Shown here piece after piece: positions 727 to 61,857 of a stretch of 64,000 nucleotides of DNA. The stretch is taken from the IMG/VR virus record IMGVR_UViG_3300038393_001317; one strand, 5' to 3'. Below the pieces are notes generated by a model. That model searched no databases, was not told the DNA's origin, and saw nothing but the letters and a program-made list of their open reading frames with translations. Origin of the DNA: a virus. Position numbers and translations under genes: made by a program. The first letter of the stretch is position 1. The number at the start of each line of letters is the position of its first letter.

Positions 727-742
727 AGGGTAAGGTCACGAC
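727..742 (-). promoter_or_regulatory. GTCGTGAC-CT-TACCCT box, 6 nt before ATG 720 (leaderless-type spacing)
   Basis: - strand reads GTCGTGACCTTACCCTCGCGGCATG; member of the 17-copy box family. Confidence 0.5.
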
Positions 743-743
743 C

Positions 744-1637
744 TCAATGCGGCGTGCTGACCTCGGCGCCGTCGCCCTGTTCGGTGTGACGGTGCGAGCT
801 TCCCACGTTGGTGCCGTTGTGGGTGAAGCTGCCGCCCGTTGCCGCCAGGTTGCCCGTGATGGCCGCGCCCTCGCCGCCGGAAACCGCCAGGCCGCCCTGG
901 ACGGTCACGTGGCCGGTGAAGGTGGAGCTCGGGCAGGTCACCAGGAGCTGGGGCGCCGTGAGGTGCGCGTTGCCGCCGGAGGTCACGTCCGTGGTGCCGG
1001 CCACGTTCACCGTGGCGTTGCCGTCGATCGTGACCTCGGCGTTGCCGCCGGTGTGCGACGTGAGGTTTCCGACGTGGTCCAGGTCGATGTTGCCGGACGG
1101 GTCAATCTGGAGACTCGCCTTCACGTCGCCGGCATTCGCGGTGACCAGGTGCACGTACGGCGCCGAGTCCGTGTTCTTGGTGATCTTCCATTCGCCGTCC
1201 ACGTCCTTGCCCGTCAGGTCCTCGTGCGCCGGCGTCGCGCCGATGCGAAAGAACGTGCCGCTGGGGTGCGAAACCTCGGTGTTGCCGTCCTTGTCGATCG
1301 TGACGTACACGTCCGACGGGTGCCGGTGGACGTAGAAGTCCTGGGCGGCGAAGGTCATCTCGCAAACCTGGGGGAACAGGAAGCCGAGCACAACGGGGTG
1401 CCGACCCATGAAGCCGACGATCGCCAGGCCGTCGCGGGTCGTCGCCTCGGTGAGGTCCCAGGCGTCGCCGCTCGAAGGCGTCTCGACGCTGGCGAGCGTG
1501 TTCCGGCCGGCGTTCGTGCGCGCGTCGCCGGACAGCACCTGCACGCCAGCCAGGCGCGAGCCGTCATCCAGCATGACCAGGTCGACGCTGTGATCTTCCG
1601 GATGCACTGCCGCCACGCGGCCGGGTCGCAAGCTCAT
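744..1637 (-). CDS. baseplate central spike (P2 gpV / Mu gp45-like)
   Basis: 297 aa. G/T/N-rich beta-helix-like repeats (GNAEVTIDGNATVNVAGTTDVTSGGNAHL). C-terminal SSHRHTEQGDGAEVSTP resembles the HxH..G..T..P apex of gpV-type spikes. Overlaps hub gene end (1634/1637). Confidence 0.7.
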   Translation of the reverse strand: MSLRPGRVAAVHPEDHSVDLVMLDDGSRLAGVQVLSGDARTNAGRNTLASVETPSSGDAWDLTEATTRDGLAIVGFMGRHPVVLGFLFPQVCEMTFAAQDFYVHRHPSDVYVTIDKDGNTEVSHPSGTFFRIGATPAHEDLTGKDVDGEWKITKNTDSAPYVHLVTANAGDVKASLQIDPSGNIDLDHVGNLTSHTGGNAEVTIDGNATVNVAGTTDVTSGGNAHLTAPQLLVTCPSSTFTGHVTVQGGLAVSGGEGAAITGNLAATGGSFTHNGTNVGSSHRHTEQGDGAEVSTPH

Positions 1638-3112
1638 TCGTCGGTCTCCGCCATCTCGGCCAGGTACGGCGTCGACGCGCCGCCGTCACGCTTCGCGCGC
1701 TCGATGAATCCGGTACCGCGCTCGAGCGTCAGGGTGCCAAAGAAGCCCTGCATCGGGACGTATTCGAGCGAGACCTGGGGCACGTAGTACTCGGCCGAGA
1801 ACGTGCCGCGCTGCAGGTTGATGTATGAGCCGGCGCGAATCTCCGGCCGGCCGCGCATGCGCATGGAGCCGTGCTCGAGCACGACGTTGTCGCGGTTCTG
1901 CTCCACCATGATGCGCCGGCGATCGTTCACCCAGTTGGACATGCTCACGTCGCGCGTCGCGACGGTGTTCTTGTCCTGGCCGCTGTTGAAGCTGGTCACG
2001 TCCTCGCCGCCCATCTGGGTCTCGGTGTCCATCAGGCGCACGCCGTACAGCGAGTCCTTGGCGTTGTCGTAGGTGTCGAGGATGAGGGTTTGCTTGTCGG
2101 CGTCCAGCGCGTACTGTTTGCGGAACACCTCGCTATTGAGGTCGAAGCGCGGCGAGCGCACCCAGTAGTAGTTCGCCACGTTCGCGTCGCTGCGCGAGAC
2201 CGACAGGCTGATCACGTCCGCGGCCGACACGTCGATCGAGTCGGGAATGTCGGCGCCGTTCTGGATGGCTTCGCCTGAGACGGCCTTGAACGGGTTGGTG
2301 CGATAGACCAGGTGAACGCCATCCTCGCGGTCCTCGAGGAACAGCTCGTTCCACACGCCCACGTCAAGGTACTGGCGCAGCAGGTCGTAGATCGTGCCGT
2401 CCTGGTTCTGTGGACCGGTCACGGACGTGACGCCGGGCACGTCGCTGACCGTGTCGACCAGGATTTCCTTCGGGTTCGGCGAGTTGGCCGGCATGAGCTC
2501 GGCCAGGTACGGGTTGAAGATTTTCGCGATGACCTCGCGCGCGAAGTCGACGCCCTTCTGCGTCGTCTCGAAGCCCACGCCGAACCTGGTGAACAGCTTG
2601 AAGTTGGACAGCACGTCCTGGCCGAGAACGTAGCCGGGCCAGTAGATGATGCGCATTTGCTGCCACAGCTTGCCGTAGTCCTGGCCGCTGATGACGACGC
2701 TGCGCATGGGCTTGCCGTCGGCGCTCATGGACTCGTTGCGCTGCACCTCGGAGACGAAGCCGCGCATCACGATCGGGAAGTCGTCGCCGGAGTCGTCGGC
2801 GTCGTGCATCATCCGAATCTCGACGTAGTCCATGGGCTCGATGAGCCCGTACAGCGTCTCGAAGTTGGCGCCTTCGGTGCCGTCATCGAACGGCTTGTCG
2901 ATCATCGTGATGGAGAACCCGCCGGCGGCCTCGCGCACGGATTTGGTCGTGCGCACGCTGCCGCCGTCGCCCAGGTGCGGAACCAGGTCGATGACCTGGC
3001 CGAGGCCCTGGAATCGGCTCGAGGTGGGCGTGCTGCCGTCGTCCAGGCGCGTGCGCTTGACCGTCTTGAACAGGTTCACCTGGATGCCAGGCTGGTAGAC
3101 CGGGACGCGCAT
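1634..3112 (-). CDS. baseplate hub / tail-tube initiator candidate (gpD / Mu gp44 slot)
   Basis: 492 aa with normal composition, lying between tape measure and spike. Function assigned by position only. Confidence 0.5.
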   Translation of the reverse strand: MRVPVYQPGIQVNLFKTVKRTRLDDGSTPTSSRFQGLGQVIDLVPHLGDGGSVRTTKSVREAAGGFSITMIDKPFDDGTEGANFETLYGLIEPMDYVEIRMMHDADDSGDDFPIVMRGFVSEVQRNESMSADGKPMRSVVISGQDYGKLWQQMRIIYWPGYVLGQDVLSNFKLFTRFGVGFETTQKGVDFAREVIAKIFNPYLAELMPANSPNPKEILVDTVSDVPGVTSVTGPQNQDGTIYDLLRQYLDVGVWNELFLEDREDGVHLVYRTNPFKAVSGEAIQNGADIPDSIDVSAADVISLSVSRSDANVANYYWVRSPRFDLNSEVFRKQYALDADKQTLILDTYDNAKDSLYGVRLMDTETQMGGEDVTSFNSGQDKNTVATRDVSMSNWVNDRRRIMVEQNRDNVVLEHGSMRMRGRPEIRAGSYINLQRGTFSAEYYVPQVSLEYVPMQGFFGTLTLERGTGFIERAKRDGGASTPYLAEMAETDE

Positions 3113-3113
3113 G

Positions 3114-9033: not shown

Positions 9034-9888
9034 TTAATGGGTGGGGATTTCTTCCGCGGAGAACGTGATTTGCACGTCCGCGATCGGGGCGACTTGGTTG
9101 GTGACGACGACGGGCGCCTTGCACGTGAACGTGCACATGGTCTGGTAGACGTTGGCCGCGTACTCGCCGTTGATGGCGTCCACATCGGTGAACGCGAACG
9201 CAATCTCGTTCATGCCGGCGGCCGCGAACACGCCCATGTTCACCATGAGCAGGCGGCGCAGCGCCTGGCGCATCGCGATTCGCTCGTCCGGGTTCAGGCA
9301 CCAGCCGACAATCTCGAGCTGCACGTCGGCCTCGCGGCCCTCGTGCTCGAGCCAGTCGCCGCCTGGCAGCTTGAAGTCGGGGACGATGAGCTCGCCGACG
9401 GCCGTAGCTTCGGCGCGGTCGTTCGCCAGGTGCACGGTGACGACCGGCAGGTCGACGGCGCCCTGGGCCGGTGGGGCCGAGTAGACGGCGATCGCATCGC
9501 GGCCGCCCTCGAGCGTGAAGGTGCCGCGCGCGCATTCGACCTTGAGGCCGTCCTCGAGGCGGTTGCGCACCACGCGCAGCACGTCGGTGCTGTGATCGTT
9601 GTACGTCGCCTGGGGGGTGCCGGAGAGCGCCGGCGCGGTCACCCAGGTACCGTCGGCCAGCTCGTAGAACGGCTTGTAGTAGATCGGCGTCTCGTTGACC
9701 AGGCCGGGCTCGGCGTCCGTGATGACGTGGTCGTGCCCCTCGAAGGCGAGCAGGGCGTCGGCGTCGTCCTGGTCGGTGAAGGTGTTGGTTTCCTTGCGGA
9801 GGAGGCGCCACTGCACCGCGCCGGCCGGAGGCACGAGCGTGATTTGCAGCGCATTGCCCGCGTACAGCGGACGGACCGAGGAAATCAT
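9034..9888 (-). CDS. virion structural protein (neck/tail-completion region), function unknown
   Basis: 284 aa with GAGGA SD. Box at 9898-9913 upstream. Confidence 0.7.
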   Translation of the reverse strand: MISSVRPLYAGNALQITLVPPAGAVQWRLLRKETNTFTDQDDADALLAFEGHDHVITDAEPGLVNETPIYYKPFYELADGTWVTAPALSGTPQATYNDHSTDVLRVVRNRLEDGLKVECARGTFTLEGGRDAIAVYSAPPAQGAVDLPVVTVHLANDRAEATAVGELIVPDFKLPGGDWLEHEGREADVQLEIVGWCLNPDERIAMRQALRRLLMVNMGVFAAAGMNEIAFAFTDVDAINGEYAANVYQTMCTFTCKAPVVVTNQVAPIADVQITFSAEEIPTH

Positions 9889-9897: not shown

Positions 9898-9913
9898 ATG
9901 ATGTTGTCACGAC
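9898..9913 (-). promoter_or_regulatory. GTCGTGAC-AA-CATCAT box, 9 nt before ATG 9888
   Basis: - strand GTCGTGACAACATCATCCGAGGACCATG. Confidence 0.5.
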
Positions 9914-9920: not shown

Positions 9921-9936
9921 GACGTGACGCCATACT
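9921..9936 (+). promoter_or_regulatory. GACGTGAC-GC-CATACT box on + strand, 6 nt before GTG 9943
   Basis: + strand GACGTGACGCCATACTGCTTACGTG; divergent partner of the 9898-9913 box. Confidence 0.5.
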
Positions 9937-11375: not shown

Positions 11376-12478
11376 AGCACTCCCATGCGGATGCCGTGGA
11401 TGGCGGACATGAGACCGCCGTTCGAGCCCTTCGGCCCGTTGATGATCGCGTTCACGTCATCGTGGTACTTGCTCATGTCGTTGCTGAAACTCTGCGACAT
11501 GCCGTCGGCGCTGATCGAGCCGGACGCCGGCATGAAGCGATCGCCGATGATCTTGAGGGCGGCCTTCTTGAGCACCAGGTCGACCAGCTCAGGGTAGTCC
11601 TGGTTCGCATTCGCCAGGCCGGCGATGTAACGCACCTCGAGCGCCTGCGGCAGGCGCCGGCTCGAGAAAAGCTGCATGATCGAGGCTGACAGCGACGACA
11701 TGCTCAGCGCGTTCGTCGGCACGATGCGAATGTGGCCGTACTTCCGGTCGACGCGCAGCCAGTCCAGCGGAAAGTCATAGGTCACCGTGCCCGGCGCCGG
11801 ATAGATCATCTTCGCCGACGTGATGCTGATGATGGGTTTCTGGCGCGTCGAGAAAAAGCCCCAGGTGTCGCCCAGGAAGTCCTCGGGCCCGAAGTCATAG
11901 CCCGGGTCGATCGCCCACGGCATGCCTGGCGTGAGCGCGGCGAGCTCGTCGCTCGTCGGGTCGTGCGGGAACATCGCCGTCGGCTGGAAGAACACGCGCA
12001 GCTCGCGCTGGGCCTCCGCCTCGGCTGCGCGAATCTTGTCCCAGATGTAGTCGTCGCTGACGGCCACCTTGGGCATGATGCCGGCGGCCGCCATGAGCAG
12101 GCGATCGCCGCGCATGCGCTGCACCGCGGTGAACCGGTTCGGGAACAGCGCGGTGCCGAGCTGGACGGCATCCTCGGCGTCCTGCTTGATGAACAGGCGC
12201 AGCACAATCTCGTCCTGCAGCCCGCCGACCGTCAGCCAGGTGCCGCGCACGACGTACCACTGGCCCTCGACGCCTCCCGACAGCTCGATCGAGCTCGTGC
12301 GCTCGTCGTGCGACGCCGAGACCTGGGTCAGGCCGGCCGGCACGGTCCAGGCGACGCCGGCGAGCTCGTCGTCGGCGGGAAACAGGTCGCCCAGGTCAAA
12401 GTTGTAGACCTTGACCGCGTCCTTGTCCTTCTCCGCCGTCGGCGTCTCGAGTGCTACGTTCACCTCGGTCGTGCTCAT
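11372..12478 (-). CDS. head-tail connector/adaptor candidate
   Basis: 368 aa. Lies after the giant repeat gene (ATGA-type overlap 12475/12478) and before neck/tail genes. Function by position. Confidence 0.6.
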   Translation of the reverse strand: MSTTEVNVALETPTAEKDKDAVKVYNFDLGDLFPADDELAGVAWTVPAGLTQVSASHDERTSSIELSGGVEGQWYVVRGTWLTVGGLQDEIVLRLFIKQDAEDAVQLGTALFPNRFTAVQRMRGDRLLMAAAGIMPKVAVSDDYIWDKIRAAEAEAQRELRVFFQPTAMFPHDPTSDELAALTPGMPWAIDPGYDFGPEDFLGDTWGFFSTRQKPIISITSAKMIYPAPGTVTYDFPLDWLRVDRKYGHIRIVPTNALSMSSLSASIMQLFSSRRLPQALEVRYIAGLANANQDYPELVDLVLKKAALKIIGDRFMPASGSISADGMSQSFSNDMSKYHDDVNAIINGPKGSNGGLMSAIHGIRMGVL

Positions 12479-15400
12479 TTGCTGCCGTCCTTTTCCAGCT
12501 TGAAGATCGTAGTGTCACGCTTCAAGGAGAACGAGTCGCCCGCGGCGTCGGGCGCCTTGGGTTGCGCGCGCACCTTGAACGTGTCGCCCTCGGTGAGCTT
12601 GAAGCCCTGGCCGCGGGCCGGACCCAGGAACACCTTGGAGCCCTTGACCCCCACTGCGCCGGCGCGCGGCGTGATGGGCGTATCGCGGCCAGCCGTCGGC
12701 GCGCTCGAGCTCGAGGCGATCGACCCGGAGCCCGGCGTGACGACGGCGGAGGTCTCCGCGGCGCCCTGGCGACCCGTGACCGAAACCTGGGAGACCGCCG
12801 GCGTGATGTAGCGGTCGAACGCCGTGCGCGGCGCCGTCGACGCGAGCGCGAGGGCCGCGGCGCCAGGAGTACGCTCGTACCCCGGCGTCGGCACGTAGCC
12901 GGTCGCCACGAGCTGGGCGCGCGCCGGCGTGATGACCAGGCCCTCGAAGTCGCCGCCGGCGATCGACTGCAAGACCGCGGCGCCAGTGCCCGGCGTGAGC
13001 TCGTACGCGCTGGGCGCCACGCCCTGGCGGCCCGTTGCAGCGACAGCGCCGACGGCGGGCGTCACCACGGCGCCGCGCTGGGCGGTCACCTGGGCACCGA
13101 CGGACGCCACGGTACCGGCGCCAGGCGCCCGGGCGTTGTCGGTCAGGCGCTGGCTCGCGTAGCCGGTCGCCGACGCGGTGCCGGTAGCGGGGAACACGAC
13201 GGCTCCGCGCACGATGACCGGCGCCTTGCCCTGCGCTGACACGCCGGCGGTGTTTGGGACCGTCGAGCGCACTACCAGCGGCGCAGCGCCGGCGATCGAC
13301 AGCGACGCGGCGCCGGGCGCGCGCGGGGCGTCGCCGGCGTCGGCCACCTGGCCGCCGGTCGTCGCAACCAGGCCGCTCGAGGGAACGCGCACGATGCCGA
13401 CGGTGATCGCCGGCACCTGGCCGAGGGCCACGGCAACGCCGGAGCCTGGAATCGAGCTCTGCGTCGCATCCGGAGCCGCGGGAGCGATCGCCACGGCGCC
13501 GGCGACGGGCGCCCGGGCGTGATCGGTGACGCGCACCGGCGCCACGCCGGCGATCGACACCTGAGCCGCGGCGGGAACCACGGTGCGGCCGCGGACCATG
13601 ACGGGCGCCTTGCCCGTGATGACCATGGCCGGCTTGGTGCCCGGCGTGATCGAATCGAAGTGCACGATGCTGGAGCTCGCGCCGGCGGCCTGCATGGACG
13701 CGGACCCGGGCGTCACGGCCTGGCCGTACGACAGCGTCGGGTCGCCGCCAAGCACGCGCAGCGGCGGCGCATCGGGCGCCGACACGCGGCCGGCAACAAC
13801 GACGGCGACTTGGCCGGCGATCGCCGCGGCTCCGGAGCGCGTCACGTTCGACTCGCCGAACTCGAGGACGGCGAGCTGGCCGTCCACCAGGGGGTCACCG
13901 GTGGGGGGCTCGATCACGCGACCATCAACCAGAACAGGAGCTGCGCCGATTGCCGCCAGGTCGCCGGCGTTGTCGCTGATGCCGGTATCGAACAGCGGCA
14001 CGCGTCCGGTCACCAGCGCGGCGCCGGCGCTGGGCGTCAGCGGCACGCCGATCGACGGCGTCGCCTGCACGCCGGCGAACGCGACGGCGCCGGCGCCAGC
14101 CACGATCGTGTCCTCGCGGAACAGCGTCGGCTCCTGGCCGTCGAGGTCAATGCGCCCAGCCGCCGGCGGGTCACCGGTTTGCTGCAGGAGGACCACCTGG
14201 CCGGTGGTCGTCGTCGTGCCGCGGCTGGGCGTGATGAAGCGCTGCACACCAACCGTCGGGCCCTGGCCGATCGAGCTCAGCGTGTCGCCGTCTGGCGTCA
14301 CGAAGGATTGACGCGTCACGGCCGCTGCCTGGCCGGCGATCGCCGCGGCGCCGGTCGACGGCGTGCGGATGGTGTTTCGAATCAGCGTCGGCGCATTGCC
14401 GGACAGCGTCGCGGCGCCGGCGCTCGTGGTCTGCACTGCGCCGCGCGACGCCGTCGCAGCCTGGCCCGTTGCGGCGAGGCCGCCAGCGCTGGGCGTCAGG
14501 ATGAAGTTGCGCGCAACCGTGGCCGCCTGGCCGGCGACAGACGCAGAGCCCGCCGACGGTTGGCGCGGCCAATCAACGACGCGCGTCGCCTGCTGACCGC
14601 TAGCCGCAACAGCGCCCACGGACGGCGTGATGTTGCGCGCGACCGTGACGGACGGCGCAGCGCCGGTCAGCGTCAGCGTGCCGTCGCGCGGACCGTCCAT
14701 GTTGGGGAAGGCGACGACGATGCTTTGCTGGAATGGCGCGCTGAGAATGGACGACTGGTTCAGGCCGTAGTACCAGGTCCAGGTGTCCGTCGTGCCGCTC
14801 GGGTTGTTGCCGGCCTGGTAGGCGACCTTGACGTAGATGTACTCGCCCTGGGCCAGCGTGAAGGCCGGCGCATCCCAGGTGATCGGCACGTTCACGGTCA
14901 GGTCGTTGCCGACCCAACCCGTGGCGCCGAACTGAGCGCTCACCAGGACCGCGGTCGTGAGCTCGGTGACGACCTCGTTCACGTCCGGCGCCGCGACGTG
15001 TTGCCCCTTGAACACGCGAACGCGCAGCGTGCCCTTCGGCTTGGTGGCGCCGTCGCCGGAGCCTTGTAGCTTGAAGTTGAATACCCAGGTGCCGGCCGAG
15101 AAGTTGCCGAACTCCCCGTTGCTCATGAAGGCGCCGCCCTGGTTCTCCTTCAAGTTTGCGTCCGGCTTAGCGCCGGTCGTGGCGGTGGTCGACAGCGTTC
15201 CGTTGACGAACGCCATGTAGTCGCCGGACGCGGCGTTCGCAAGGTCCCAGCCGGTGCCCGACAGATAGCCCGGGAACGTGTACCAGTCCGCCGTCAGCTT
15301 CGCGTAGGTCTGGCCGGAGAACGACACGCCGTCGTCCATGTACCAGGTGAACAGGCCGGTCTCGACGTAGTCGGGCGTCTGGCCGGCGGTCGCGATCGCG

Positions 15401-18354: not shown

Positions 18355-18600
18355 TTACGCCGCGCCCAAAGAAAAAGCCGGGCGGCCGCTCACGCGCACC
18401 GCCTCGGCTTCGAGGAGAAGAAGGAGAACCGACGGGGGGCCCGTGGAGCTGCGGGTGTCCTGGCCGCGGCGCCCGATGCGTACCGGAGCGTTCACGATTG
18501 CGACGCGATCGACGCGCGCGGCAGGAGCCGGCAGGACGAGCAAAAGCGTCGCCTCCGTAGAGGCGACGCTCAGCGTCCCCGTGCCTGGCGTGATGACCAT
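18355..18600 (-). CDS. questionable 81-codon ORF, in frame with and separated by a single TAA from the giant gene
   Basis: Begins MVITPGTGTLSVAS (resembles the giant protein's repeat unit) and ends ..GAA TAA ATG. It contains a strong terminator hairpin, so it may be noncoding leader. Confidence 0.3.
   Translation of the reverse strand: MVITPGTGTLSVASTEATLLLVLPAPAARVDRVAIVNAPVRIGRRGQDTRSSTGPPSVLLLLLEAEAVRVSGRPAFSLGAA
18538..18570 (-). terminator. intrinsic terminator between 155-aa gene and giant gene
   Basis: - strand AGCGTCGCCTC-TACG-GAGGCGACGCT followed by TTTG (11-bp stem). Confidence 0.6.
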
Positions 18601-18607
18601 GACGGCG

Positions 18608-18623
18608 ATTGTGCCGTCACGGC
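18608..18623 (-). promoter_or_regulatory. GCCGTGAC-GG-CACAAT box variant, 7 nt before ATG 18600
   Basis: - strand GCCGTGACGGCACAATCGCCGTCATG. Confidence 0.35.
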
Positions 18624-18624
18624 A

Positions 18625-19092: not shown

Positions 19093-19104
19093 GTTTTGCT
19101 CCGG

Positions 19105-24387: not shown

Positions 24388-24403
24388 ATGGTGTTGTCAC
24401 GAC
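24388..24403 (-). promoter_or_regulatory. GTCGTGAC-AA-CACCAT box, 6 nt before ATG 24381
   Basis: - strand GTCGTGACAACACCATACGCTCATG; no SD possible. Confidence 0.55.
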
Positions 24404-29518: not shown

Positions 29519-29534
29519 ATCGTAGGGTCACGAC
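29519..29534 (-). promoter_or_regulatory. GTCGTGAC-CC-TACGAT box, 6 nt before ATG 29512
   Basis: - strand GTCGTGACCCTACGATGAGGCGATG. Confidence 0.55.
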
Positions 29535-30106: not shown

Positions 30107-30122
30107 ATTGTTTGGTCACGAC
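30107..30122 (-). promoter_or_regulatory. GTCGTGAC-CA-AACAAT box, overlaps TGA of upstream gene
   Basis: - strand GTCGTGACCAAACAATCGGAGTCACCATG. Confidence 0.45.
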
Positions 30123-36941: not shown

Positions 36942-36957
36942 ATCATCCTGTCACGAT
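36942..36957 (-). promoter_or_regulatory. ATCGTGAC-AG-GATGAT box variant, overlaps TGA of upstream gene
   Basis: - strand ATCGTGACAGGATGATCTAGG..., 34 nt before ATG 36915. Confidence 0.35.
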
Positions 36958-41163: not shown

Positions 41164-41179
41164 ATCATCGAGTCACGAC
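41164..41179 (-). promoter_or_regulatory. GTCGTGAC-TC-GATGAT box, 6 nt before ATG 41157
   Basis: - strand TTTTCGTTTGTCGTGACTCGATGATCGCTAGATG, directly after a terminator. Confidence 0.55.
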
Positions 41180-41393: not shown

Positions 41394-41409
41394 AGTGTGG
41401 GCTCACGAC
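41394..41409 (-). promoter_or_regulatory. GTCGTGAG-CC-CACACT box variant with no ORF downstream
   Basis: - strand GCGGCGTTTTTTCGTCGTGAGCCCACACTACGCG. Confidence 0.4.
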
Positions 41410-41675: not shown

Positions 41676-41869
41676 CGCACTGGCTTTGTCGGAATCAACC
41701 GGAACGGGCGCCAACTAGCCCTCGGAGTCATCCGACTCGCCACCGCGACAGGTTCGGCAGGGAGCCGGAATCACCTCGCATTTTTGGCAGAGCCTCGGGA
41801 CCGTTCGCTGTCGGTATGCGTCCCCGATGAAGTTAGACCCGGCTGTCACCCCGGGCCCCTCGCGCTTTC

Positions 41870-45374: not shown

Positions 45375-45390
45375 AGGGTAGTGTCACGAC
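45375..45390 (-). promoter_or_regulatory. GTCGTGAC-AC-TACCCT box, 6 nt before ATG 45368
   Basis: - strand GTCGTGACACTACCCTGCGGTCATG. Confidence 0.55.
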
Positions 45391-45411: not shown

Positions 45412-45441
45412 TTGCGCTTTTTTGATCAAGCCACCCATAAT
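45412..45441 (+). promoter_or_regulatory. sigma70-like promoter candidate TTGCGC-N18-CATAAT for + strand block
   Basis: gcTTGCGCttttttgatcaagccaccCATAATtgaggaacc; contains the TTTTTGATCAAG box. Confidence 0.3.
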
Positions 45442-45459: not shown

Positions 45460-45717
45460 ATGGAGGCGAATTTGCCCACCCCGAACCAGGCCGCACCCCA
45501 GGCCCACACCAAGACCAACGACACCTGCCTGCCGAAGTGCGGCGACGACGAGCCGATTTTCGTGCTGCGCGCGCAGGACGCCAGCGCCGACGCCGTCGTG
45601 CAAAAGTGGATTGAGCTCAACGTCGACACCCTCGGCTACGAGCACCCGAAAATCCTCGCGGCGATCGCCACGCGCGACGCCATGGCGGCCTGGCCCTCGC
45701 GCAAGACGGCGGACTGA
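45460..45717 (+). CDS. hypothetical protein (85 aa)
   Basis: First gene of the + block, GAGGAA upstream, ..EPIFVLRAQDASADAVVQKWIELN.. Confidence 0.7.
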   Translation: MEANLPTPNQAAPQAHTKTNDTCLPKCGDDEPIFVLRAQDASADAVVQKWIELNVDTLGYEHPKILAAIATRDAMAAWPSRKTAD

Positions 45718-45719
45718 GC

Positions 45720-46073
45720 ATGCCAATCCTCGACCACAGCCCCAGCCGGTACCGCGAACTCTCCGAGCCGGTGCCGCGCGGCGTCATTGACGACCGCCTC
45801 CAGGCGTTTTTCAAGGAGCTCCAGGAGCTCCGCATCAAGCACAAGATCGCCGACGTGCACGTGATCGTGCGCGCCGACGTGATCGTGCAGGACGACCTGC
45901 TCGCCGAGGCGGAAGTCGCGCCCGTGATGACCAGCGGCCACCTGGGCGACTCGCGCCTGGCGGAGCCGATGACCGCCTGGGCGTTCGGCCGCGCGAGCGC
46001 CGAGCGCATGCAGGAAATCGACAACGTGAAGGCGAACGGCATCCGCGCCGGCCGCCGTGACCGGGAGCGCTGA
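45720..46073 (+). CDS. hypothetical protein (117 aa)
   Basis: Starts 3 nt after the previous stop; normal composition. Confidence 0.7.
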   Translation: MPILDHSPSRYRELSEPVPRGVIDDRLQAFFKELQELRIKHKIADVHVIVRADVIVQDDLLAEAEVAPVMTSGHLGDSRLAEPMTAWAFGRASAERMQEIDNVKANGIRAGRRDRER

Positions 46074-46074
46074 C

Positions 46075-47583: not shown

Positions 47584-47590
47584 GGGAACC

Positions 47591-48055
47591 ATGGGAACCG
47601 CACGAATCCAGTCACCTATCCCCGAGCTCGCCGCGCTGCGCATCTTCCCGATGCCGTCGAAGCCGCTCAAGAACGCGCGCCTCCTGCGCGTGCCGCCGGC
47701 CGGCGTTATCGTCGCCGTCGACGCCGCCGGAAACGCCTACAGCACCCAGGTGCAGGGCACCAGCAAGACCTACTACGACCTGGAGGCCGGCCGCATCCGG
47801 TTCACCATGGAGGGCCTGGCGAAGCTGGGCGTCGTCGCCGCGAAGGCGCTGAAAGCGCATCGCGCGCTTGTCGAGGCCGAGACCGTGCGGGATGCCAAGC
47901 GCGCCGCGGCACGCGAGGTGATCGGCGACATGAAGAAGCTGGGCATGAAGCCGACGAGGGCGCAGTGCATCAAGATCGAGCTCGCGCTCGGCGGCGGGCC
48001 GCGGGCCCGGGCGATCATCGCGGACGCGCTCGGCGCGGACGCCTTGCCGGCATGA
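47591..48055 (+). CDS. hypothetical protein (154 aa)
   Basis: Start trimmed to ATG 47591, preceded by GAGGGA. Confidence 0.7.
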   Translation: MGTARIQSPIPELAALRIFPMPSKPLKNARLLRVPPAGVIVAVDAAGNAYSTQVQGTSKTYYDLEAGRIRFTMEGLAKLGVVAAKALKAHRALVEAETVRDAKRAAAREVIGDMKKLGMKPTRAQCIKIELALGGGPRARAIIADALGADALPA

Positions 48056-48240
48056 GCGGCGACGCCAGCGGGCCGGGCGACTGGCCCCAGATGATCAAGG
48101 ACTGCCAGCAGCGCGAGTCGAAGCTGTCGGACTGGGAGCGCACGTTCATTGACAGCGTCGAGGACCGACTCGCCAAGGGGCAGGGCCTCACGCCGAACCA
48201 GGTCGCGCGCCTGGACGAAATCTGGGAGAAAGTGACGTGA
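48052..48240 (+). CDS. hypothetical protein (62 aa)
   Basis: ATGA overlap with the upstream stop; the track N-terminus is Arg-rich shadow. Confidence 0.6.
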   Translation: MSGDASGPGDWPQMIKDCQQRESKLSDWERTFIDSVEDRLAKGQGLTPNQVARLDEIWEKVT

Positions 48241-48638
48241 GCATTTTCACCAGGCGGGCCCGTGAGCGCGCGCTCCAGGCGCCGCGCCGGCGCCACAAGT
48301 ACGAGCTCGTGCAGGTCGAGCACCAGGACAACGGCCAGGCGCTGCGCATCACGCTCCAGGACACGCGCACCATCCCGCTCAGCGCGTACCCCGCGGAGGC
48401 GGTCATCCAGCGCGTGAAGGACCTGGGCTACGCCGTCGACGGCGTCCGCAAGGAGCCGGTCGTCATCGTCCAGAAGGTCTACATGGACGGCAGCGACGAG
48501 CAGCCGGGCGACGAGCTGTGCGTCATCGACGCCGAAACCCTCGAGCGCGCCGGCCGCCTGGCGCTATGCGGGCAGCGCGCGGCCGCGCACGAATTGATCA
48601 TCGACGCAGTTGTCAAATCCACAGGAGCCAGGCTATGA
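48237..48638 (+). CDS. hypothetical protein (133 aa)
   Basis: GTGA overlap (GTG start). Confidence 0.65.
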   Translation: MSIFTRRARERALQAPRRRHKYELVQVEHQDNGQALRITLQDTRTIPLSAYPAEAVIQRVKDLGYAVDGVRKEPVVIVQKVYMDGSDEQPGDELCVIDAETLERAGRLALCGQRAAAHELIIDAVVKSTGARL

Positions 48639-49098: not shown

Positions 49099-49114
49099 AT
49101 GGTGCGGTCACGAC
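49099..49114 (-). promoter_or_regulatory. GTCGTGAC-CG-CACCAT box directly after terminator
   Basis: - strand CCGGCCTTTTTGTTTGGTCGTGACCGCACCATGG. Confidence 0.5.
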
Positions 49115-49143
49115 CAAACAAAAAGGCCGGGTCTCCCCGGCCT
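49115..49143 (-). terminator. intrinsic terminator
   Basis: - strand AGGCCGGG-GAGA-CCCGGCCT followed by TTTTGTTTG. Confidence 0.65.
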
Positions 49144-49166
49144 TTCGCGTTGAGCTCGAGCTCGTG

Positions 49167-49554: not shown

Positions 49555-49570
49555 ATCGTGTTGTCACGAC
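49555..49570 (-). promoter_or_regulatory. GTCGTGAC-AA-CACGAT box, overlaps TGA of upstream gene
   Basis: - strand GTCGTGACAACACGATGAGG. Confidence 0.45.
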
Positions 49571-49836
49571 ATGCGCGGCGCACGCCGCGGCGCGGGAGCC
49601 GACGCGCAGGGCTCGTGGTCGAACTTCACCGACCACGAGCCTGCCGCCGGGGCGGTCAGGGCCATGCCGACCGCCTTGCCGTCCACGCAGTAGAAGGCGA
49701 TCGCGGGCTTGTTGTCGTCCGAGCGGGGGGTCTCGGTCGACGCCGCATGCGCCTGCGGGAAGGCGGCCGCGCCCAGGACGACGCACGTCAGGGACCAGAG
49801 CCCCACCAGTGCGACGACCAGGGCGCGGTTGATCAC
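49564..49836 (-). CDS. secreted small protein (90 aa) with signal peptide
   Basis: MINRALVVALVGLWSLTCVVLGAAAFPQAHA/AS, with two further Cys. ATGA overlap with the upstream gene. Confidence 0.65.
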   Translation of the reverse strand: MINRALVVALVGLWSLTCVVLGAAAFPQAHAASTETPRSDDNKPAIAFYCVDGKAVGMALTAPAAGSWSVKFDHEPCASAPAPRRAPRMS

Positions 49837-50191: not shown

Positions 50192-50207
50192 ATCGTGCGG
50201 TCACGAC
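50192..50207 (-). promoter_or_regulatory. GTCGTGAC-CG-CACGAT box
   Basis: - strand GTCGTGACCGCACGATGAGG, 34 nt before ATG 50165. Confidence 0.45.
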
Positions 50208-50208: not shown

Positions 50209-52329
50209 TCACTTCGCCATGAACAACACGCACGCTACCTGGTCAGGCTTGATCATGAAGTGGCGCTCCGCGCACCGGCCGGTCCAGACGCCCTCCTCGT
50301 CGTAGCCGGCGGCGCACTGGCCGCAGGTGTCGCCCAGGCCCTGCGACTGCGCCTCCACCATCTGCGCGACGGTCTCGGGCATGCCGGCGCGGCGGAGTTG
50401 ATCGGCTGGTTCCATTGAGACGACCTCCGCCTCGGGGATGAGGAATGTCGCGGTGCCGTGCGAGCGGGCCCAGGCCACGTCGCACAGCATGTTCGCGTAG
50501 GAAAAGTGAGGGTCGATGCCGATTTTCTTGACGGACCGCTTGAACTGGTTCGTCTCCTCGTCCTTCTCGGCGACCAGCGCGGTTTTCGTGAAATGCGTGA
50601 ACGCGATCGGCAGCACGGCCGCGGTCTGGGCGATGCCCTTTTCCTTGACCTCCTGGACCAGGCCCTGCGGGTCCGGGAACACGCACAGCGGCTCCTTCGC
50701 GGTGAACCGCGCCATGGAGACCTGCATGCACTTGTACTGGTCCATCTTGAGGGTGTAGCGATCGCGCTCGGCCTCGTCGGTGCGGCGCTCGCTCACGTCC
50801 AGCTTGGGCGCGTCGCCCCAGGCGATCATGCCCTCCGCCATCCGGCCGAAGCTGTCGCAGATGAACACGCGGCCGCGGTGCCGGTTCGCGAAGCGCTTCG
50901 CGTCGTTGTAGTTCGGGTTGATTTCCACCACGCACACGGCAACGCCGAAGGCTTCCATGAGCTCGTCGCAGCGCGCGAACGGGTCGGCGCTGTAGATCAT
51001 CTCGACGTGCACCGTCGCCTGGCGGCCGTCGGGCAGGCGCTCCTTGATCACCACGACGTTGAAGTTGCCCATCTGGTCGATGCCCATGTAGCAACCCTTG
51101 CCGCGGGTTTTCCACCGCACGCCCAGGGCCTTGCCGGCCTCGACGCAGCGCGCCAGGTGCTCGAGCGTCACCGGGACCTGGCTCGGGTCCAGGTACGGCT
51201 TGCCCAGCTTGCGGTTGAAGAAGTTTTTCATGTCGGTCGCCGTGTTGTAGGCCGACAGAATTTCCTCGGGGCTGATGGTGGGCGAAAGGAACTGCGGGAA
51301 GTGCACGCTGCGGATGCGCAGCTTGCGGTCCTTGAGCGGCACGTCGAGCTGCGGGCCCGGGTCGCGCTCCGGGTGCTCGGCTATCCATTCGCCGTCCTGG
51401 CTGTCGTCAATCCAGTGGCCGTTCGGGCACACGTAGCGGTAGGTGTCGCGCTCCTTGTCCAGGCGGATGCACTCGGGGAAATAGTCATCGAGCGGCTTGC
51501 TCGAGCCGCACGTGCGGCACCGCGTATGGAAGCGAAACCTGGTGCCGCGCTTGTACCAGTGGTCAATGTCGGCGTCCGGCCAGTTGGCCGTCGAGCCCAT
51601 TTGCAGCGTGCGCAGCGGCGACGCCGACAGGCGCTCGATCGTCTTTTCAATCTGGTCCAGGGTCATCTCCTGGACCTCATCGAACGACAGCACGTCCATC
51701 GGGATGGACTCGGTCGTCGCGCGGCCGCTGGTCCACGAGAAGATGAACAGCGCCGAGTCGATGCGCCGGCGGTTGACGTTGCCCTCGCCCTGCTTGCGGC
51801 CGGAGCCGTCGGCGGCGTCTTGCGTCATGAGCGCGTGCACCTCGGGCACGCTGCGCACCACGGGCATGAAGCGCTCGGTCGACTTGACGCCGGCCAGGTT
51901 CATGTCCGGCAGGAACATGCCGATCGTGCACTGTCCGAGCTGGCGGCCGAACTTGAGGCCCAGGTAGATCGTCGCCAGCATCTCCATGACCGTGAACCCG
52001 ACCTGGGCGCACTTCATGATCACGAGCATGTAGCGGTACGCCTCGTCAATCGAGCTGGGCACCTGGTCGTAGACCCAGGCCATGGCCGGCCGGTCGTCCA
52101 GGCGGAAGGGTTTGCCGTCGACCTTGAGGCCCTTCGCGCCCAGGTCCTCGCACCACTGGCGGAACGTCACCTCCGGCGCGATCACCAGCGTCTCGCGGTT
52201 CTCGCCGGTCGCGACTTCGATCGCGGCCATGGTCTCCTCGAGGCCGGAGGTCATGAACGCCAGCAGGTCGGGCTTGCGCGGCGGCGGGTTGCCGCGGCCG
52301 CCGCCGTGCGGCTTGTAGCTTCCGCTCAT
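50209..52329 (-). CDS. terL: terminase large subunit (lambda GpA-like)
   Basis: 706 aa. MKCAQVGFT resembles the GpA-family KSAQ(V/I)G(F/Y)(T/S) P-loop-like motif. Also VLSFDEVQE and Cys clusters CRTCG...CPNGH. Overlaps terS (52326/52329). Confidence 0.75.
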   Translation of the reverse strand: MSGSYKPHGGGRGNPPPRKPDLLAFMTSGLEETMAAIEVATGENRETLVIAPEVTFRQWCEDLGAKGLKVDGKPFRLDDRPAMAWVYDQVPSSIDEAYRYMLVIMKCAQVGFTVMEMLATIYLGLKFGRQLGQCTIGMFLPDMNLAGVKSTERFMPVVRSVPEVHALMTQDAADGSGRKQGEGNVNRRRIDSALFIFSWTSGRATTESIPMDVLSFDEVQEMTLDQIEKTIERLSASPLRTLQMGSTANWPDADIDHWYKRGTRFRFHTRCRTCGSSKPLDDYFPECIRLDKERDTYRYVCPNGHWIDDSQDGEWIAEHPERDPGPQLDVPLKDRKLRIRSVHFPQFLSPTISPEEILSAYNTATDMKNFFNRKLGKPYLDPSQVPVTLEHLARCVEAGKALGVRWKTRGKGCYMGIDQMGNFNVVVIKERLPDGRQATVHVEMIYSADPFARCDELMEAFGVAVCVVEINPNYNDAKRFANRHRGRVFICDSFGRMAEGMIAWGDAPKLDVSERRTDEAERDRYTLKMDQYKCMQVSMARFTAKEPLCVFPDPQGLVQEVKEKGIAQTAAVLPIAFTHFTKTALVAEKDEETNQFKRSVKKIGIDPHFSYANMLCDVAWARSHGTATFLIPEAEVVSMEPADQLRRAGMPETVAQMVEAQSQGLGDTCGQCAAGYDEEGVWTGRCAERHFMIKPDQVACVLFMAK

Positions 52330-52970: not shown

Positions 52971-52986
52971 AGGCTACCGTCACGTC
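52971..52986 (-). promoter_or_regulatory. GACGTGAC-GG-TAGCCT box, 6 nt before ATG 52964
   Basis: - strand GACGTGACGGTAGCCTCGAGGGATG. Confidence 0.5.
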
Positions 52987-55244: not shown

Positions 55245-55404
55245 TGCTCACTCCTCGGGGGTATTGCGGATGAGTTATTGTGTCGCGTTTTTGATCAAGT
55301 GGATATAGCGCGCACGCAACATCGGGCGCCGGCGGAAACGGATTCGGGCAGCTCGCGGCGACGTGGCCTGGTTGGCCGCAACGCGTGCACTGGTCGCCCT
55401 TCAC
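55141..55404 (-). CDS. possible CCHC zinc-knuckle peptide
   Basis: MKGDQCTRCGQPGHVAASCPNP fits CX2CX4HX4C. ATGA overlap with the upstream gene. The 3' two-thirds has poor codon bias and overlaps the next gene. Confidence 0.3.
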   Translation of the reverse strand: MKGDQCTRCGQPGHVAASCPNPFPPAPDVACALYPLDQKRDTITHPQYPRGVSSAPSSFVVPPRHPGRPGLRGLAFVAASRRRVAIH

Positions 55405-56039
55405 TTCGCCGGCCTCCAGGCGTAACCGCGGCCGGCGACGGCGACGATCGGCAGGCCCATGAGCTGCATGTCGGCTATGTCGCGGTAGACGGTGCGCGGC
55501 ACGACGGCGAACTGCTTCGCCAGGTGTTCCGCGGTCAGCGTGTCATGCGCGCGCAGGGCCTCCACGATGCGGTGCCGGCGCTTGGAGATGTACGGGCTTT
55601 CCGGGTGCAGCTCCTCGGGCACGTCGGGCGGCGGCTCGTCGTACGCGCGCAGCTCCCAGCGCGGGAGTGCGACCTGGTAGCTCACCTTGGCGTCGCCGAT
55701 CATGAGGGTGCGCTCGACGGGGTCGGTGTCCCAGACGGGGAACCATCCCATGCGCCGGCGGGCGTTGGTCTTTGGCGCCGGCATCGGCGGCGCGGGCGGC
55801 AGCCTCGGCGCGGGTGTCGGCGCCGGCGTCGGTGCGGGCATCGCGGCGCCGTGCTTGGCGAACAGGTTCGCGCGGGCGATGCGCGCCAGGACGGAGTCCT
55901 TCGGCTTGTCGCTCAGCGTGTTGACCATGCGCCGCTCGTCCGGCCAGGACGTGGGCGCCGGCGGCAGCATGCCGGTCGCGAACACGTTGAACGCGCGCGC
56001 GCCGGCGTCGTCGTCCTGGTCCTGCGGCTCGCCGGTCAT
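55401..56039 (-). CDS. DNA-binding protein with C-terminal HTH (HTH_11/DeoR-like)
   Basis: ..LTAEHLAKQFAVVPRTVYRDIADMQLMGLPIV..GRGYAW; Pro-rich linker. Confidence 0.65.
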   Translation of the reverse strand: MTGEPQDQDDDAGARAFNVFATGMLPPAPTSWPDERRMVNTLSDKPKDSVLARIARANLFAKHGAAMPAPTPAPTPAPRLPPAPPMPAPKTNARRRMGWFPVWDTDPVERTLMIGDAKVSYQVALPRWELRAYDEPPPDVPEELHPESPYISKRRHRIVEALRAHDTLTAEHLAKQFAVVPRTVYRDIADMQLMGLPIVAVAGRGYAWRPAK

Positions 56040-57353: not shown

Positions 57354-57646
57354 GGCTCGGCCGGCTCCTCGTCCTCCTCCAGGCGCGCCGGCGTCCAGCC
57401 GTGGCGGTGGAGCTCGGCCAGGCCCTCGGGCGTCAGCCAGACCTTGGTCTTGACCAGGCCGCGGTCCATGAGCGACGTGAGCACGCGCGCCAGGGTGTTC
57501 TTGGCGGCGTCGGCCGTCGCGCCGGTCGTGCTCTGCATGAACGCACGCAGCGCGGTCGGCTCCTGCGGGCCGGCATTCGCCAGGTGCGCAAGGGTGCGGT
57601 ACGGCGTGTCGTTACGGTTGAGGCTTCGGTGACGTGGACCGGGCAT
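57350..57646 (-). CDS. winged-helix-like DNA-binding protein (98 aa)
   Basis: I prefer ATG 57646 over the track's TTG; ..AKNTLARVLTSLMDRGLVKTKVWLTPEGL.. Confidence 0.55.
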   Translation of the reverse strand: MPGPRHRSLNRNDTPYRTLAHLANAGPQEPTALRAFMQSTTGATADAAKNTLARVLTSLMDRGLVKTKVWLTPEGLAELHRHGWTPARLEEDEEPAEP

Positions 57647-58094
57647 CGCTGGGCTTTCCAAACAATGCCTCGATCATTGGGTCACGACGCGCACCGCGGC
57701 GCTTGAGCTGGCGCTCGGCGTTGCGACGCGCGAGCTCGTCCGGGTCGGTCACGCGTAATTTCTCACGCAGGTCGCGCCGGCGCTCGGTGACCGTGCGCTT
57801 GTTCGGCCGGCGCTTGTCGGTGTCGCGGCCGCCGGGCGTGATGACCTGAAACAGCGCGATGGGCGGGCGATCGCTCACGCGCCAGTCGGCGATGCGCACG
57901 CGCCGCGGGCCAGGCGGGACGCCGTCGCGCTCGACGCCGCGCAGGAAGTCCAGGTACTGCACCGTGGTGCGCTTTGCCAGGTGCAGGTGCTCGGCCAGCT
58001 CCTGCGCGCTGTGCGGCTCGGCCAGGAACTCGAGGGCCTTCTCGAGCTTCTTGACCGCGGCGGGCTTGCGGAACGCGTAGGTCTTGTGGGTCAC
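57612..58094 (-). CDS. HTH/winged-helix DNA-binding protein (160 aa)
   Basis: GTG start in a GTGA overlap with the MTase stop; ..SAQELAEHLHLAKRTTVQYLDFL.. and a basic C-terminus. Confidence 0.65.
   Translation of the reverse strand: MTHKTYAFRKPAAVKKLEKALEFLAEPHSAQELAEHLHLAKRTTVQYLDFLRGVERDGVPPGPRRVRIADWRVSDRPPIALFQVITPGGRDTDKRRPNKRTVTERRRDLREKLRVTDPDELARRNAERQLKRRGARRDPMIEALFGKPSDARSTSPKPQP
57673..57688 (-). promoter_or_regulatory. GTCGTGAC-CC-AATGAT box inside 3' end of upstream gene
   Basis: - strand GTCGTGACCCAATGATCGAGG, 26 nt before ATG 57646. Confidence 0.45.
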
Positions 58095-60620: not shown

Positions 60621-60911
60621 CTAGGCGGGCACGCTCTGCGCGGCAACGATCAGGCTGGGAAACTCCGGCGTCGGCGTCGGGTTTCGTTCACACCGCACGC
60701 CGGCGTCGCGGCCGGTCTTGGTGCGGATGCCGCACGAGCAGATGCTCGAGACCTCGCGGTGCACGGTCTCGGCGCCGCAGTTGGTGCAGGTCCAGCGGTG
60801 CGCATGGTCGTCGGCGCAATCGAGCGGCCGCTCGCCGCGGACGATGCGGCCGAAGCAGGCGGCGCAGACGTGGTCGGTGAGGGAGACGAGGCCGGTAAGG
60901 GTGCGCGCCAT
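60621..60911 (-). CDS. Cys-rich zinc-ribbon-like protein (96 aa)
   Basis: VCAACFG...WTCTNCG...CSCG. Confidence 0.6.
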   Translation of the reverse strand: MARTLTGLVSLTDHVCAACFGRIVRGERPLDCADDHAHRWTCTNCGAETVHREVSSICSCGIRTKTGRDAGVRCERNPTPTPEFPSLIVAAQSVPA

Positions 60912-60914: not shown

Positions 60915-61448
60915 TCAGAACAACCGGAGCTGACGCAGTGCCGGCGTGACGCAGGGCGCCAGGCCGAAGCGGACGACGGACTTGTTGTCGCGAAGCGCCG
61001 AGATGATCAGCTCGGCGTCGTCCAGGGTGAAGGGCGCCGTCGACGTTCGCAGCTCGCCGCCCGCCATGAAGCGGATGCGCCGGCGCGCCAGGCATGCGAG
61101 CTTGACCGGCGCCGTGCCCTTCGCGTTCTTGCCCTTCATGAACTCGTACTCGCGGTTCTTGCACGAGACGCAGTGCATGCCGCCGATCAGGCGCGGTGCC
61201 GGCCGGTGGCATCGCGAGCAGACCTTGGAGCCGGCCAGGCTCGAGGTCGACGCGTCAGCCTCGCCGGCGTGCAGGGCGCCCAGTGGGCAGCGCCGGCATG
61301 ACTCGCGGGCCTGGTCCCCGCATCCTGGGCCGTTGCTGGCGCGCCACATACCGGCGCACGAGCTCGTGCTCAACCTGGCCTTGAGGTGCTGGCAATCGAA
61401 GTAGAGGACGCCAGGCGTCAGCTCGATGGAATGGTACTCAACCTGCAT
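60915..61448 (-). CDS. Cys-rich protein (177 aa), first gene of the - strand early operon
   Basis: CRRCP...CSRCH...CVSCKN; starts next to the AT-rich control region. Confidence 0.65.
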   Translation of the reverse strand: MQVEYHSIELTPGVLYFDCQHLKARLSTSSCAGMWRASNGPGCGDQARESCRRCPLGALHAGEADASTSSLAGSKVCSRCHRPAPRLIGGMHCVSCKNREYEFMKGKNAKGTAPVKLACLARRRIRFMAGGELRTSTAPFTLDDAELIISALRDNKSVVRFGLAPCVTPALRQLRLF

Positions 61449-61734
61449 AAGAGTCCCCCCGGATATATGCGGCTGAGGCGGGATTCTATGGTTGCGCTGA
61501 AATCATGCTGATACTTTACATTCTGTAACCAACAGTCGCCCTAGTCCGACAAAGGACCATCAGCGGCGTCCTACAAATCCGTGGTTTCCCGGCCACGAGC
61601 TGTTCTGGTTGGGCGGTTTGGGCTTGGTTGAGGCCGGCGGTTTTGGAAAAAGTCCTTTGTAATCAACGCTCTCTACTACTACCAAAACCAAAAAACCTAG
61701 ATTTAGATAGATAGATACATAGCAGGAGAGGTCT

Positions 61735-61768
61735 ACATATATTCACAATAATTGTGTTTAATATATGT
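61735..61768. repeat. nested palindrome ACATATAT-TCACAATAATTGTGTTTA-ATATATGT
   Basis: Outer arms 61735-42 / 61761-68; inner CACAAT-A-ATTGTG at 61744-56. Confidence 0.7.
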
Positions 61769-61841
61769 ATAGGGGAGAGTAGGAGGGATATGATTCGCAG
61801 CCCAGCAGACGGTTTTTCGGTTTTGGACCGGCTAACTGCCT

Positions 61842-61857
61842 GTCGTGATTCGATAAT
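61842..61857 (+). promoter_or_regulatory. GTCGTGAT-TC-GATAAT box on + strand upstream of + gene
   Basis: + strand ctGTCGTGATTCGATAATcgg. Confidence 0.45.

Follow-up and report, generated by a model that had tools for sequence, protein, structure and literature searches.

The sequence studied here is a stretch of 64,000 nucleotides (nt) of the IMG/VR virus record IMGVR_UViG_3300038393_001317, hereafter called the window. It is a segment of a myovirus genome with a G+C content of ~67%; about one third of this phage's genome (~30 kb) lies outside the window. Portal, large terminase, a DarB-like methylase/helicase and a helicase of 1525 amino acids (aa) are encoded in the window, and nearly all genes are located on the - strand. 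We analyzed a recurrent 16-base signal, the box, which consists of the octamer GTCGTGAC, two further bases and a hexamer resembling a bacterial -10 element, and which we regard as a putative promoter of the late genes.

The window is syntenic with the Bordetella phage vB_BbrM_PHB04 (genus Phabquatrovirus, 94 kb). Further relatives are the Pseudomonas phages Touem01, Dolphis and Jeremy, Aeromonas phage ST4, E. coli phage ECML-606-1, Enterobacter phage phiT5282EW, Yersinia phage fHe-Yen8-01 and Morganella phage Mecenats66. A protein 100% identical to a window protein is encoded on a metagenomic contig of 98,168 bp, and Caballeronia and Paraburkholderia assemblies contain additional relatives. 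The phages bearing the box are a family of ~90–98 kb myoviruses, made up of PHB04 (Phabquatrovirus) and its relatives.

Distribution of the box in the window

An initial annotation, made from the sequence without database searches, had reported 11 exact copies of GTCGTGAC, all of them on the - strand. We found the same 11 copies at the same positions and none on the + strand. Dinucleotide-preserving shuffles predict 4.5 copies for both strands together and a second-order Markov model predicts 1.6 per strand. All 11 copies are followed after two bases by a hexamer of the pattern nAnnnT. Among 110 octamers with one mismatch such a hexamer is present at six, exactly those that had been named before (18616, 36950, 41402 and 52979 on the - strand, 9921 and 61842 on the + strand), and all six are located upstream of open reading frames (ORFs) in the correct orientation. 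The hexamer is thereby found at all 17 sites. For the composite motif TCGTGAY-N2-NANNNT we counted 12 occurrences on the gene strand and one on the other strand at an expectation of 0.21 per strand, an over-representation of more than 50-fold.

At seven genes exactly 6 nt separate the hexamer from the start codon, a spacing that was already part of the initial annotation. Six of these boxes are located on the - strand. The box GTCGTGAC ct TACCCT (727..742) precedes the ATG at 720 of a baseplate gene (1-720), whose mRNA is predicted to be leaderless; orthologous boxes are found at 4733 in PHB04 and at 23666 in Dolphis. GTCGTGAC aa CACCAT (24388..24403) lies ahead of the ATG at 24381 of the prohead protease operon and has an orthologous copy in every relative examined, while GTCGTGAC cc TACGAT (29519..29534) precedes the ATG at 29512 of the 1525-aa helicase and has a PHB04 orthologue at 25670. 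GTCGTGAC tc GATGAT (41164..41179) is positioned before the ATG at 41157 of a MuF-like minor head protein, with a terminator (41183-41218) immediately upstream. GTCGTGAC ac TACCCT (45375..45390) precedes the portal gene (ATG at 45368) and GACGTGAC gg TAGCCT (52971..52986) the gene of the small terminase (ATG at 52964), which is followed by that of the large terminase (50209-52329). The seventh box, GACGTGAC gc CATACT (9921..9936), is located on the + strand and belongs to a conserved 262-aa opposite-strand gene starting with GTG at 9943. Orthologues of this gene start with ATG at the same distance from the box.

Three more boxes on the - strand come close to this spacing. GCCGTGAC gg CACAAT (18608..18623) is separated by 7 nt from the ATG at 18600 and GTCGTGAC ca AACAAT (30107..30122) by 10 nt from the ATG at 30096. 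GTCGTGAC aa CATCAT (9898..9913), which diverges from the + strand box at 9921..9936, lies 9 nt from the ATG at 9888 of an adaptor-like gene (9034-9888) with a predicted leader of ~2–3 nt, and orthologous boxes are present in Touem01, PHB04, Dolphis, ST4, ECML-606-1 and Mecenats66.

At the remaining boxes the distance increases. ATCGTGAC ag GATGAT (36942..36957, -) lies 26 nt from the ATG at 36915 of the 2157-aa DarB-like protein. A distance of 36 nt to the ATG at 49062 follows GTCGTGAC cg CACCAT (49099..49114, -), with a GGAGAG Shine-Dalgarno sequence in the leader and a terminator (49121-49146) upstream, and 26 nt to the ATG at 50165, again with GGAGAG as Shine-Dalgarno sequence, follow GTCGTGAC cg CACGAT (50192..50207, -). 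The box GTCGTGAC aa CACGAT (49555..49570, -) is 64 nt away from the GTG at 49490 of a small membrane protein gene; its leader of ~58 nt holds a 9-bp hairpin and an AAGGAG Shine-Dalgarno sequence. GTCGTGAC cc AATGAT (57673..57688, -) lies 26 nt from the ATG at 57646, and GTCGTGAT tc GATAAT (61842..61857, +) lies 58 nt from the in-frame ATG at 61916 of a + strand gene ending at 62587. Finally, GTCGTGAG cc CACACT (41394..41409, -) heads a unit of ~200 nt without an ORF, which ends at the terminator 41183-41218; another terminator (41416-41435) is located upstream of this box.

Three boxes (30107..30122, 36942..36957 and 49555..49570) include the TGA of the preceding ORF (30116-30445, 36951-39200 and 49564-49836, respectively), in agreement with the initial annotation. 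Its statement that no copy lies inside a called gene needs a small correction, as the octamer at 57681 is located within the last ~25 codons, at the 3' end, of ORF 57612-58094. This ORF was also called by a gene caller in the close relative L041.

Conservation and spacing in related phages

The box is kept in about 35 related phages with very different hosts. In PHB04, Touem01, Dolphis, ST4, ECML-606-1 and Mecenats66 as well as in 27 metagenomic relatives (43–68% G+C) it is found at orthologous genes, namely those of portal, protease, adaptor, MuF, baseplate and terminase. The identical octamer precedes the orthologues on the late-gene strand in Touem01 (58% G+C), PHB04, Dolphis, ST4 and ECML-606-1; in Mecenats66 (49.5% G+C) GTCGTGAT and ATCGTGAT are located before the protease and adaptor genes. 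We compared the portal boxes of 26 IMG/VR contigs with portal proteins 52–92% identical and a G+C content of 43–68%. A box precedes the portal gene in all 26 contigs and is exact (GTCGTGAC/T) in 25; the portal box of contig L032 is TTCGTGAC with a poorer hexamer. The DNA around the portal boxes cannot be aligned between relatives, but the box itself is retained.

A survey of 426 kb of the relatives' sequence yielded 104 composite box sites, 99 of which are carried by the late strand. Of the five off-strand sites at least four (L025, L026, L027, L016) show the spacing predicted to be leaderless, 5–7 nt to an ATG, and three of these four precede a conserved opposite-strand gene resembling the window's gene at 9943. 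The sites are also restricted to certain modules: in the complete genome of Dolphis all 12 are located in late modules and none in the replication/early region at 38–72 kb, and in the complete genome of ECML-606-1 all nine are located in the virion, lysis and packaging modules.

We derived a logo from 78 sites of six genomes, which had been collected with the hexamer filter on. It reads G-T-C-G-T-G-A-Y, two G/C-rich bases, cAcaAT, five to six G/C-rich bases and cATG. Since the information content upstream of the octamer is zero, a -35 element is absent. Without the hexamer filter, A at position 2 and T at position 6 of the hexamer were found at 10 of 11 exact octamers in PHB04 and at four of five in Touem01, compared to all 17 sites of the window.

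The distance between hexamer and ATG is 6 nt at 57 of the 104 sites in the relatives and 7 nt at another eight; in a control, 1.6% of random NANNNT hexamers were found at 6 nt from an ATG. Together with the seven window sites these 57 sites show a geometry that would suit leaderless mRNAs, in which the 6-nt gap is combined with a conserved C-A and leaves no room for a Shine-Dalgarno sequence. The C-A is located 6–7 nt downstream of the hexamer and matches a preferred start site of transcription. In the enterobacterial and low-GC members the boxes are followed by leaders that include Shine-Dalgarno sites. The protease box of ECML-606-1 is followed by ATG-TTT-TGA and then by a 22-nt leader with a Shine-Dalgarno sequence, and leaders of 20–35 nt follow the boxes at the ECML-606-1 portal gene, in Mecenats66 and in the low-GC contigs L033 and L037. 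The constant feature in the relatives is box-N2-hexamer-N6-(C)A, while the distance from the box to the coding sequence varies. Because the leadered relatives keep the distance between box and predicted start, the box appears to be tied to the start of transcription and not to translation. In addition, intrinsic terminators abut three of the window's boxes (octamers at 41172, 41402 and 49107), and with a terminator directly before them there is no room for another promoter.

The box as a putative late promoter

Conservation, strand, spacing and terminators fit the proposal of the initial annotation, that the box defines a promoter class specific to the phage with transcripts often starting at the start codon, and lend it support at the level of sequence comparison. 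We consider it likely that the late units for virion, packaging and lysis functions have the box as their core promoter, that the box often gives rise to leaderless transcripts and that a phage factor serves as its reader. The term 'late' is a presumed timing, judged from the functions of the genes served. A(-11) and T(-7) are the positions captured on melting by region 2 of the sigma-70 family. The hexamer nAnnnT with its invariant A(-11) and T(-7) would be the -10 element and would be melted by a sigma-70-type region 2; since the invariant positions match the targets of this region, a polymerase of the host type is favoured over a phage enzyme with a single subunit. GTCGTGAY at about -22 to -15 would substitute for the absent -35 element. 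Its reader, possibly an activator, a sigma-like or a sigma-remodelling protein, would work with the host RNA polymerase, and it would be encoded by the phage, because the octamer is invariant over hosts of four orders and a 25-point range of G+C content. Until this factor is produced the box promoters would be silent. Transcripts are predicted to begin with the A of the conserved C-A, 7 nt beyond the hexamer. This A would be the first base of the ATG in the window and in most relatives among Burkholderiales, Pseudomonas and Aeromonas phages, so that the first gene of most late units would be translated from a leaderless mRNA.

Several observations weigh against this proposal. A comparison of ~30 window ORFs with Pfam or PHROGs revealed neither a sigma factor nor Lpa, gp55 or another of the known late activators. 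Gammaproteobacteria have few leaderless mRNAs and often translate them poorly, and so frequent a use for proteins as abundant as those of the virion is unexpected; GTG is moreover a poor leaderless initiator in E. coli, and the window gene at 9943 starts with GTG. Furthermore, at 90389 in PHB04, 28081 in Dolphis and 7559 in ECML-606-1 a hairpin of high G+C content and a T-run lie between box and ATG, within ~10 nt of the box. A simple promoter model does not explain these structures. Such terminator-like leaders would hint at attenuation, or at a polymerase resistant to termination, at those promoters.

The closest architecture is that of the late promoters of phage P1, which are activated by Lpa together with the host protein SspA (PMC1891329). 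P1 late promoters (NC_005856) read AAGTGACTT-N4-CAGAAT, AAGTGACTA-N4-TAAATT and AAGTTACTT-N4-TACAAT, among others. In both phages a TANNNT-like -10 element without -35 element is accompanied by a short conserved box in the '-22 region' directly upstream, about a dozen copies are placed before operons for morphogenesis, lysis and packaging, some copies form divergent pairs and the box holds a GTGAC core. P1 is also a myovirus of ~94 kb with a DarB-type protein. The P1 box, in contrast, consists of the 9-bp palindrome AAGTnACTT and is spaced 4 bp from the hexamer, whereas the box described here is the asymmetric 8-mer GTCGTGAY with a 2-bp spacer; because box and spacer differ, GTGAC is placed 4 bp closer to the hexamer than in P1. 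In six P1 late promoters that we read, the start codons are located well beyond the hexamer and the transcripts are leadered. DarB was the sole match when the window proteins were compared with P1 by tblastn. The box promoter would resemble P1 late promoters in the way it works but falls outside their class.

A leaderless late programme has been described for the Thermus Lalka phages, in which 16 late promoters show a TAGGGT -10 element, a C at -25 and no -35 element and are mostly leaderless; for half of these promoters the mapped 5' ends lie 6 nt beyond the hexamer, and the authors propose a phage-encoded specificity factor (bioRxiv 10.64898/2026.04.20.719267). These phages are distant structural relatives of the window phage (portal 36% identical) and likewise have many late promoters and few terminators in the late region. 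A class-specific -10 element is combined in both with a conserved upstream position and with a leaderless output, which was mapped there and is predicted here. The sequences differ (TAGGGT and C(-25) versus GTCGTGAY-N2-nAnnnT), and so does the host; in Thermus leaderless mRNAs are common.

In T4 late promoters (gp55 and gp33) and in the gp36 promoters of phiEco32 and 7-11 an extended -10 element without -35 element suffices for a phage protein of the sigma family. Their consensus sequences (TATAAATA and TAATGTATA) are unrelated to the box; at -10 the TATAAATA of the gp55 class is missing, and the hexamer here reads cAcaAT or TAccCT after G/C-rich bases. No sigma-like protein was found among the ~30 window ORFs scanned (Pfam, PHROG), nor is one named in the annotation of Dolphis. 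An extended -10 element (TGn) also lies directly upstream of the hexamer and can offset a missing -35 element, and a minority of boxes end in ...GAT-G-n. Conservation of the box, however, reaches to -22 as GTCGTGA, and most sites lack TG at -15/-14; in the window C is found at -15 in 15 of the 17 sites.

The genomes also hold promoters of an ordinary kind. Divergent from the portal box, a sigma-70-type promoter, TTGCGC-N18-CATAAT (45412..45441, +), is predicted to serve the + strand cluster 45460-48638 and is conserved in the relatives as TTGACC-N17-GATAAT, TTGCCC-N17-CATAAT and similar sequences. Since this opposite-strand cluster has an ordinary sigma-70-type promoter, the phage appears to use two promoter classes. 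Ordinary promoters of the type TTGACC-N17-GATAAT serving other genes in the same genomes speak against the possibility, unlikely in our estimate, that a housekeeping or conserved alternative sigma factor of the host reads octamer and hexamer unaided, for example as a long extended -10 element. A(-11) and T(-7) are indeed signature positions of sigma-70, and the lower-GC boxes often end in ...GAT-g and thereby in TGn (T(-15) in 16 and G(-14) in 38 of the 78 logo sites). However, the octamer remains constant in phages of Enterobacterales, Aeromonas, Pseudomonas and Burkholderiales at 43–68% G+C, for which host preferences are an unlikely cause, and in our judgement it does not fit the proteobacterial consensus sequences of sigma-54, -32, -28 or -24. 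The box could also be the operator of a repressor controlling lysogeny or timing, overlying weak promoters that consist of a -10 element only. The family encodes an integrase (PHB04, Dolphis), and P1 has, according to its annotation, asymmetric C1 operators at many promoters. We nevertheless regard an operator as very unlikely: CACGAT, TACCCT or GATGAT without a -35 element or a consistent TGn should be nearly inactive, so that a positive factor would still be needed, and the constant 2-bp phasing to the hexamer in more than 100 sites is better suited to an element of a polymerase-promoter complex.

An element acting at the RNA level, be it a site of processing, cleavage or protein binding or a translational operator at a fixed distance from the AUG, would account for the 6-nt distance to the ATG at most sites; three boxes overlap an upstream stop codon and are hence present in read-through RNA. 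We find this explanation barely credible, since the start codon is 20–65 nt away and preceded by an ordinary Shine-Dalgarno sequence in ECML-606-1, Mecenats66, L033, L037 and at six sites of the window, upstream transcripts are terminated immediately before three boxes, and the box at 41402 heads a unit without any ORF. Promoter features at the DNA level are seen in the hexamer, with its invariant A and T, and in the C-A context of the start. A Chi- or KOPS-like skewed octamer, a restriction-modification site and a displaced -35 element with its -10 element inside the coding sequence were excluded by reasoning, given that the octamer lies between genes and is phased at a constant distance to the hexamer.

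The architecture, in which a box adjoins the -10 element and a -35 element is missing, is known from other late promoters. We found no published description of the motif; papers of the primer type made up the full-text matches to GTCGTGAC among the matches listed, and the Mecenats66 paper does not mention promoters (PMC9503643). It is unusual that a box is invariant over very different hosts without a recognizable factor, and that first genes would systematically be leaderless in phages of Proteobacteria, with leaders returning in the enterobacterial and low-GC lineages. As a core promoter of late units, the box would provide the late regulatory code for a widespread and barely studied family of ~90–98 kb phages with hosts among Bordetella, Pseudomonas, Aeromonas, Yersinia, E. 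coli, Morganella and Burkholderiaceae, and the motif can be used immediately for annotating transcription units and correcting start codons. An invariant 8-bp element in hosts of 43–68% G+C points to a phage specificity factor unlike those characterized, which can be hunted directly in cultured members growing on tractable E. coli, P. putida and B. bronchiseptica. Members with predicted leaderless and with leadered transcripts, sorted by host clade, represent a natural experiment on the bacterial tolerance of leaderless translation, and the 16-bp promoter could become an orthogonal, infection-dependent expression signal.

Candidate factors and further features

Among the genes that are neither structural nor related to replication, only one adjacent pair, encoding two zinc proteins, is common to the window, PHB04, Dolphis and ECML-606-1. 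The pair is located at the head of an apparent early operon, and its products are our candidates for the factors reading the box. One is a Cys-rich protein of 177 aa (60915..61448, -) with invariant C31, C51, C54, C77, C80, C93 and C96. Among phage records it is limited to the ten isolates, all of which encode it, and it has 84 metagenomic homologues. It matched no Pfam or PHROG family. Its predicted model is confident, with a predicted local distance difference test (pLDDT) value of 90. Foldseek gave no fold match to the model in the PDB, a profile search of the PDB gave cysteine-driven cytochrome c noise alone, and the single match in BFVD is a 90-aa viral protein probably of the same family. 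The other is a zinc-ribbon-like protein of 96 aa (60621..60911, -) with the pattern CxxC...CxxC...CxC...C, 288 homologues and a model of pLDDT 92. In the PDB it comes closest to zinc ribbons, those of Rpa12, TFIIS, Rpb9 and Elf1; because their E-values are about 1, the protein is called a zinc ribbon and nothing further. The homologue in the Yersinia phage is annotated as 'particle associated protein'. We regard it as doubtful that the pair forms a new RNA-polymerase specificity device, which redirects the host polymerase to the element at -22 to -15 in a programme that deliberately yields leaderless late mRNAs in Proteobacteria. If true, translation of the virion proteins would be independent of Shine-Dalgarno/30S initiation during host shut-off.

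Other candidates were rejected. No homologue of P1 Lpa was found by tblastn, a comparison at the sequence level, in which the best E-values were 0.46–1.5 (part of Touem01, complete PHB04, part of ST4). A regulator of the AraC family is encoded in five of the ten isolates (PHB04, Dolphis, Jeremy, Touem01 and ST4) and is absent from the window, ECML-606-1, phiT5282EW, fHe-Yen8-01 and Mecenats66; ECML-606-1 and Mecenats66 both carry boxes. The AraC-family regulators (L003 783-1382, L013 15241-16098, L007 2130-3035) are 33–36% identical between phages and restricted to the Bordetella, Pseudomonas and Aeromonas phages, the subset in which most late genes are predicted to be leaderless. A 508-aa protein (46057-47583, +), by its position suspected to be the 'transcriptional regulator' of PHB04, matched no Pfam family and showed no tblastn match to the PHB04 protein or the relatives. 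Two window proteins with matches to a helix-turn-helix domain are candidates for DNA-binding proteins specific to the window's phage lineage: a 212-aa protein (55401-56039, -) with a C-terminal HTH_11 winged helix (E 3.5e-13) and a 160-aa protein (57612-58094, -) with a weak HTH_11 match. For neither did a comparison with PHB04, Dolphis and the partial genome sequences of the remaining relatives detect a homologue.

The head module contains several large enzymes, which are probably injected. The 2157-aa DarB-like methylase/helicase (30442-36915, -) and the 1525-aa helicase (24935-29512, -) each have a box promoter directly upstream, and the gene of a 500-aa protein (42112-43614, -) with a RelA/SpoT (guanosine tetraphosphate, ppGpp, synthetase) domain at the Pfam threshold is located within the portal unit. 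On the - strand at 12475-20544 the synteny of the head-tail module is interrupted by four ORFs that have no equivalent in the relatives compared and appear to have been inserted. They include the ORF of a 1959-aa protein with an unusually high second-position G+C content of 0.61, and one of the four (18355-18600) has its own box promoter.

The stretch 61650-61790 is A+T-rich, contains short repeats (tagatttagatagatagataca and tatattcacaataattgtgtttaatatatgtata) and sits in a gap of ~470 bp (61449-61915) between the leftward zinc-protein operon and a rightward gene. A strict sigma-70 consensus was not found at 61650-61790; the stretch possibly serves as a control region or origin.

The unit without ORF (41183-41393, -) comprises ~200 nt and is bounded by the box at 41402 and the terminator 41218-41183. 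No Rfam family reached the gathering score in the window, and 41150-41900 gave only a chance-level match, ar35. The same layout of a box with a CACACT hexamer, 170–215 nt, a terminator and the MuF box is present in at least seven related contigs, with GACCGTnTGCGG...GGGAAATAAAGGCCGCAG as conserved core. RNAalifold on eight sequences predicts a long-range helix between columns 96–100 and 181–185, with two to four double-sided changes per pair and none broken, which makes the unit a candidate for a late-expressed structured small RNA.

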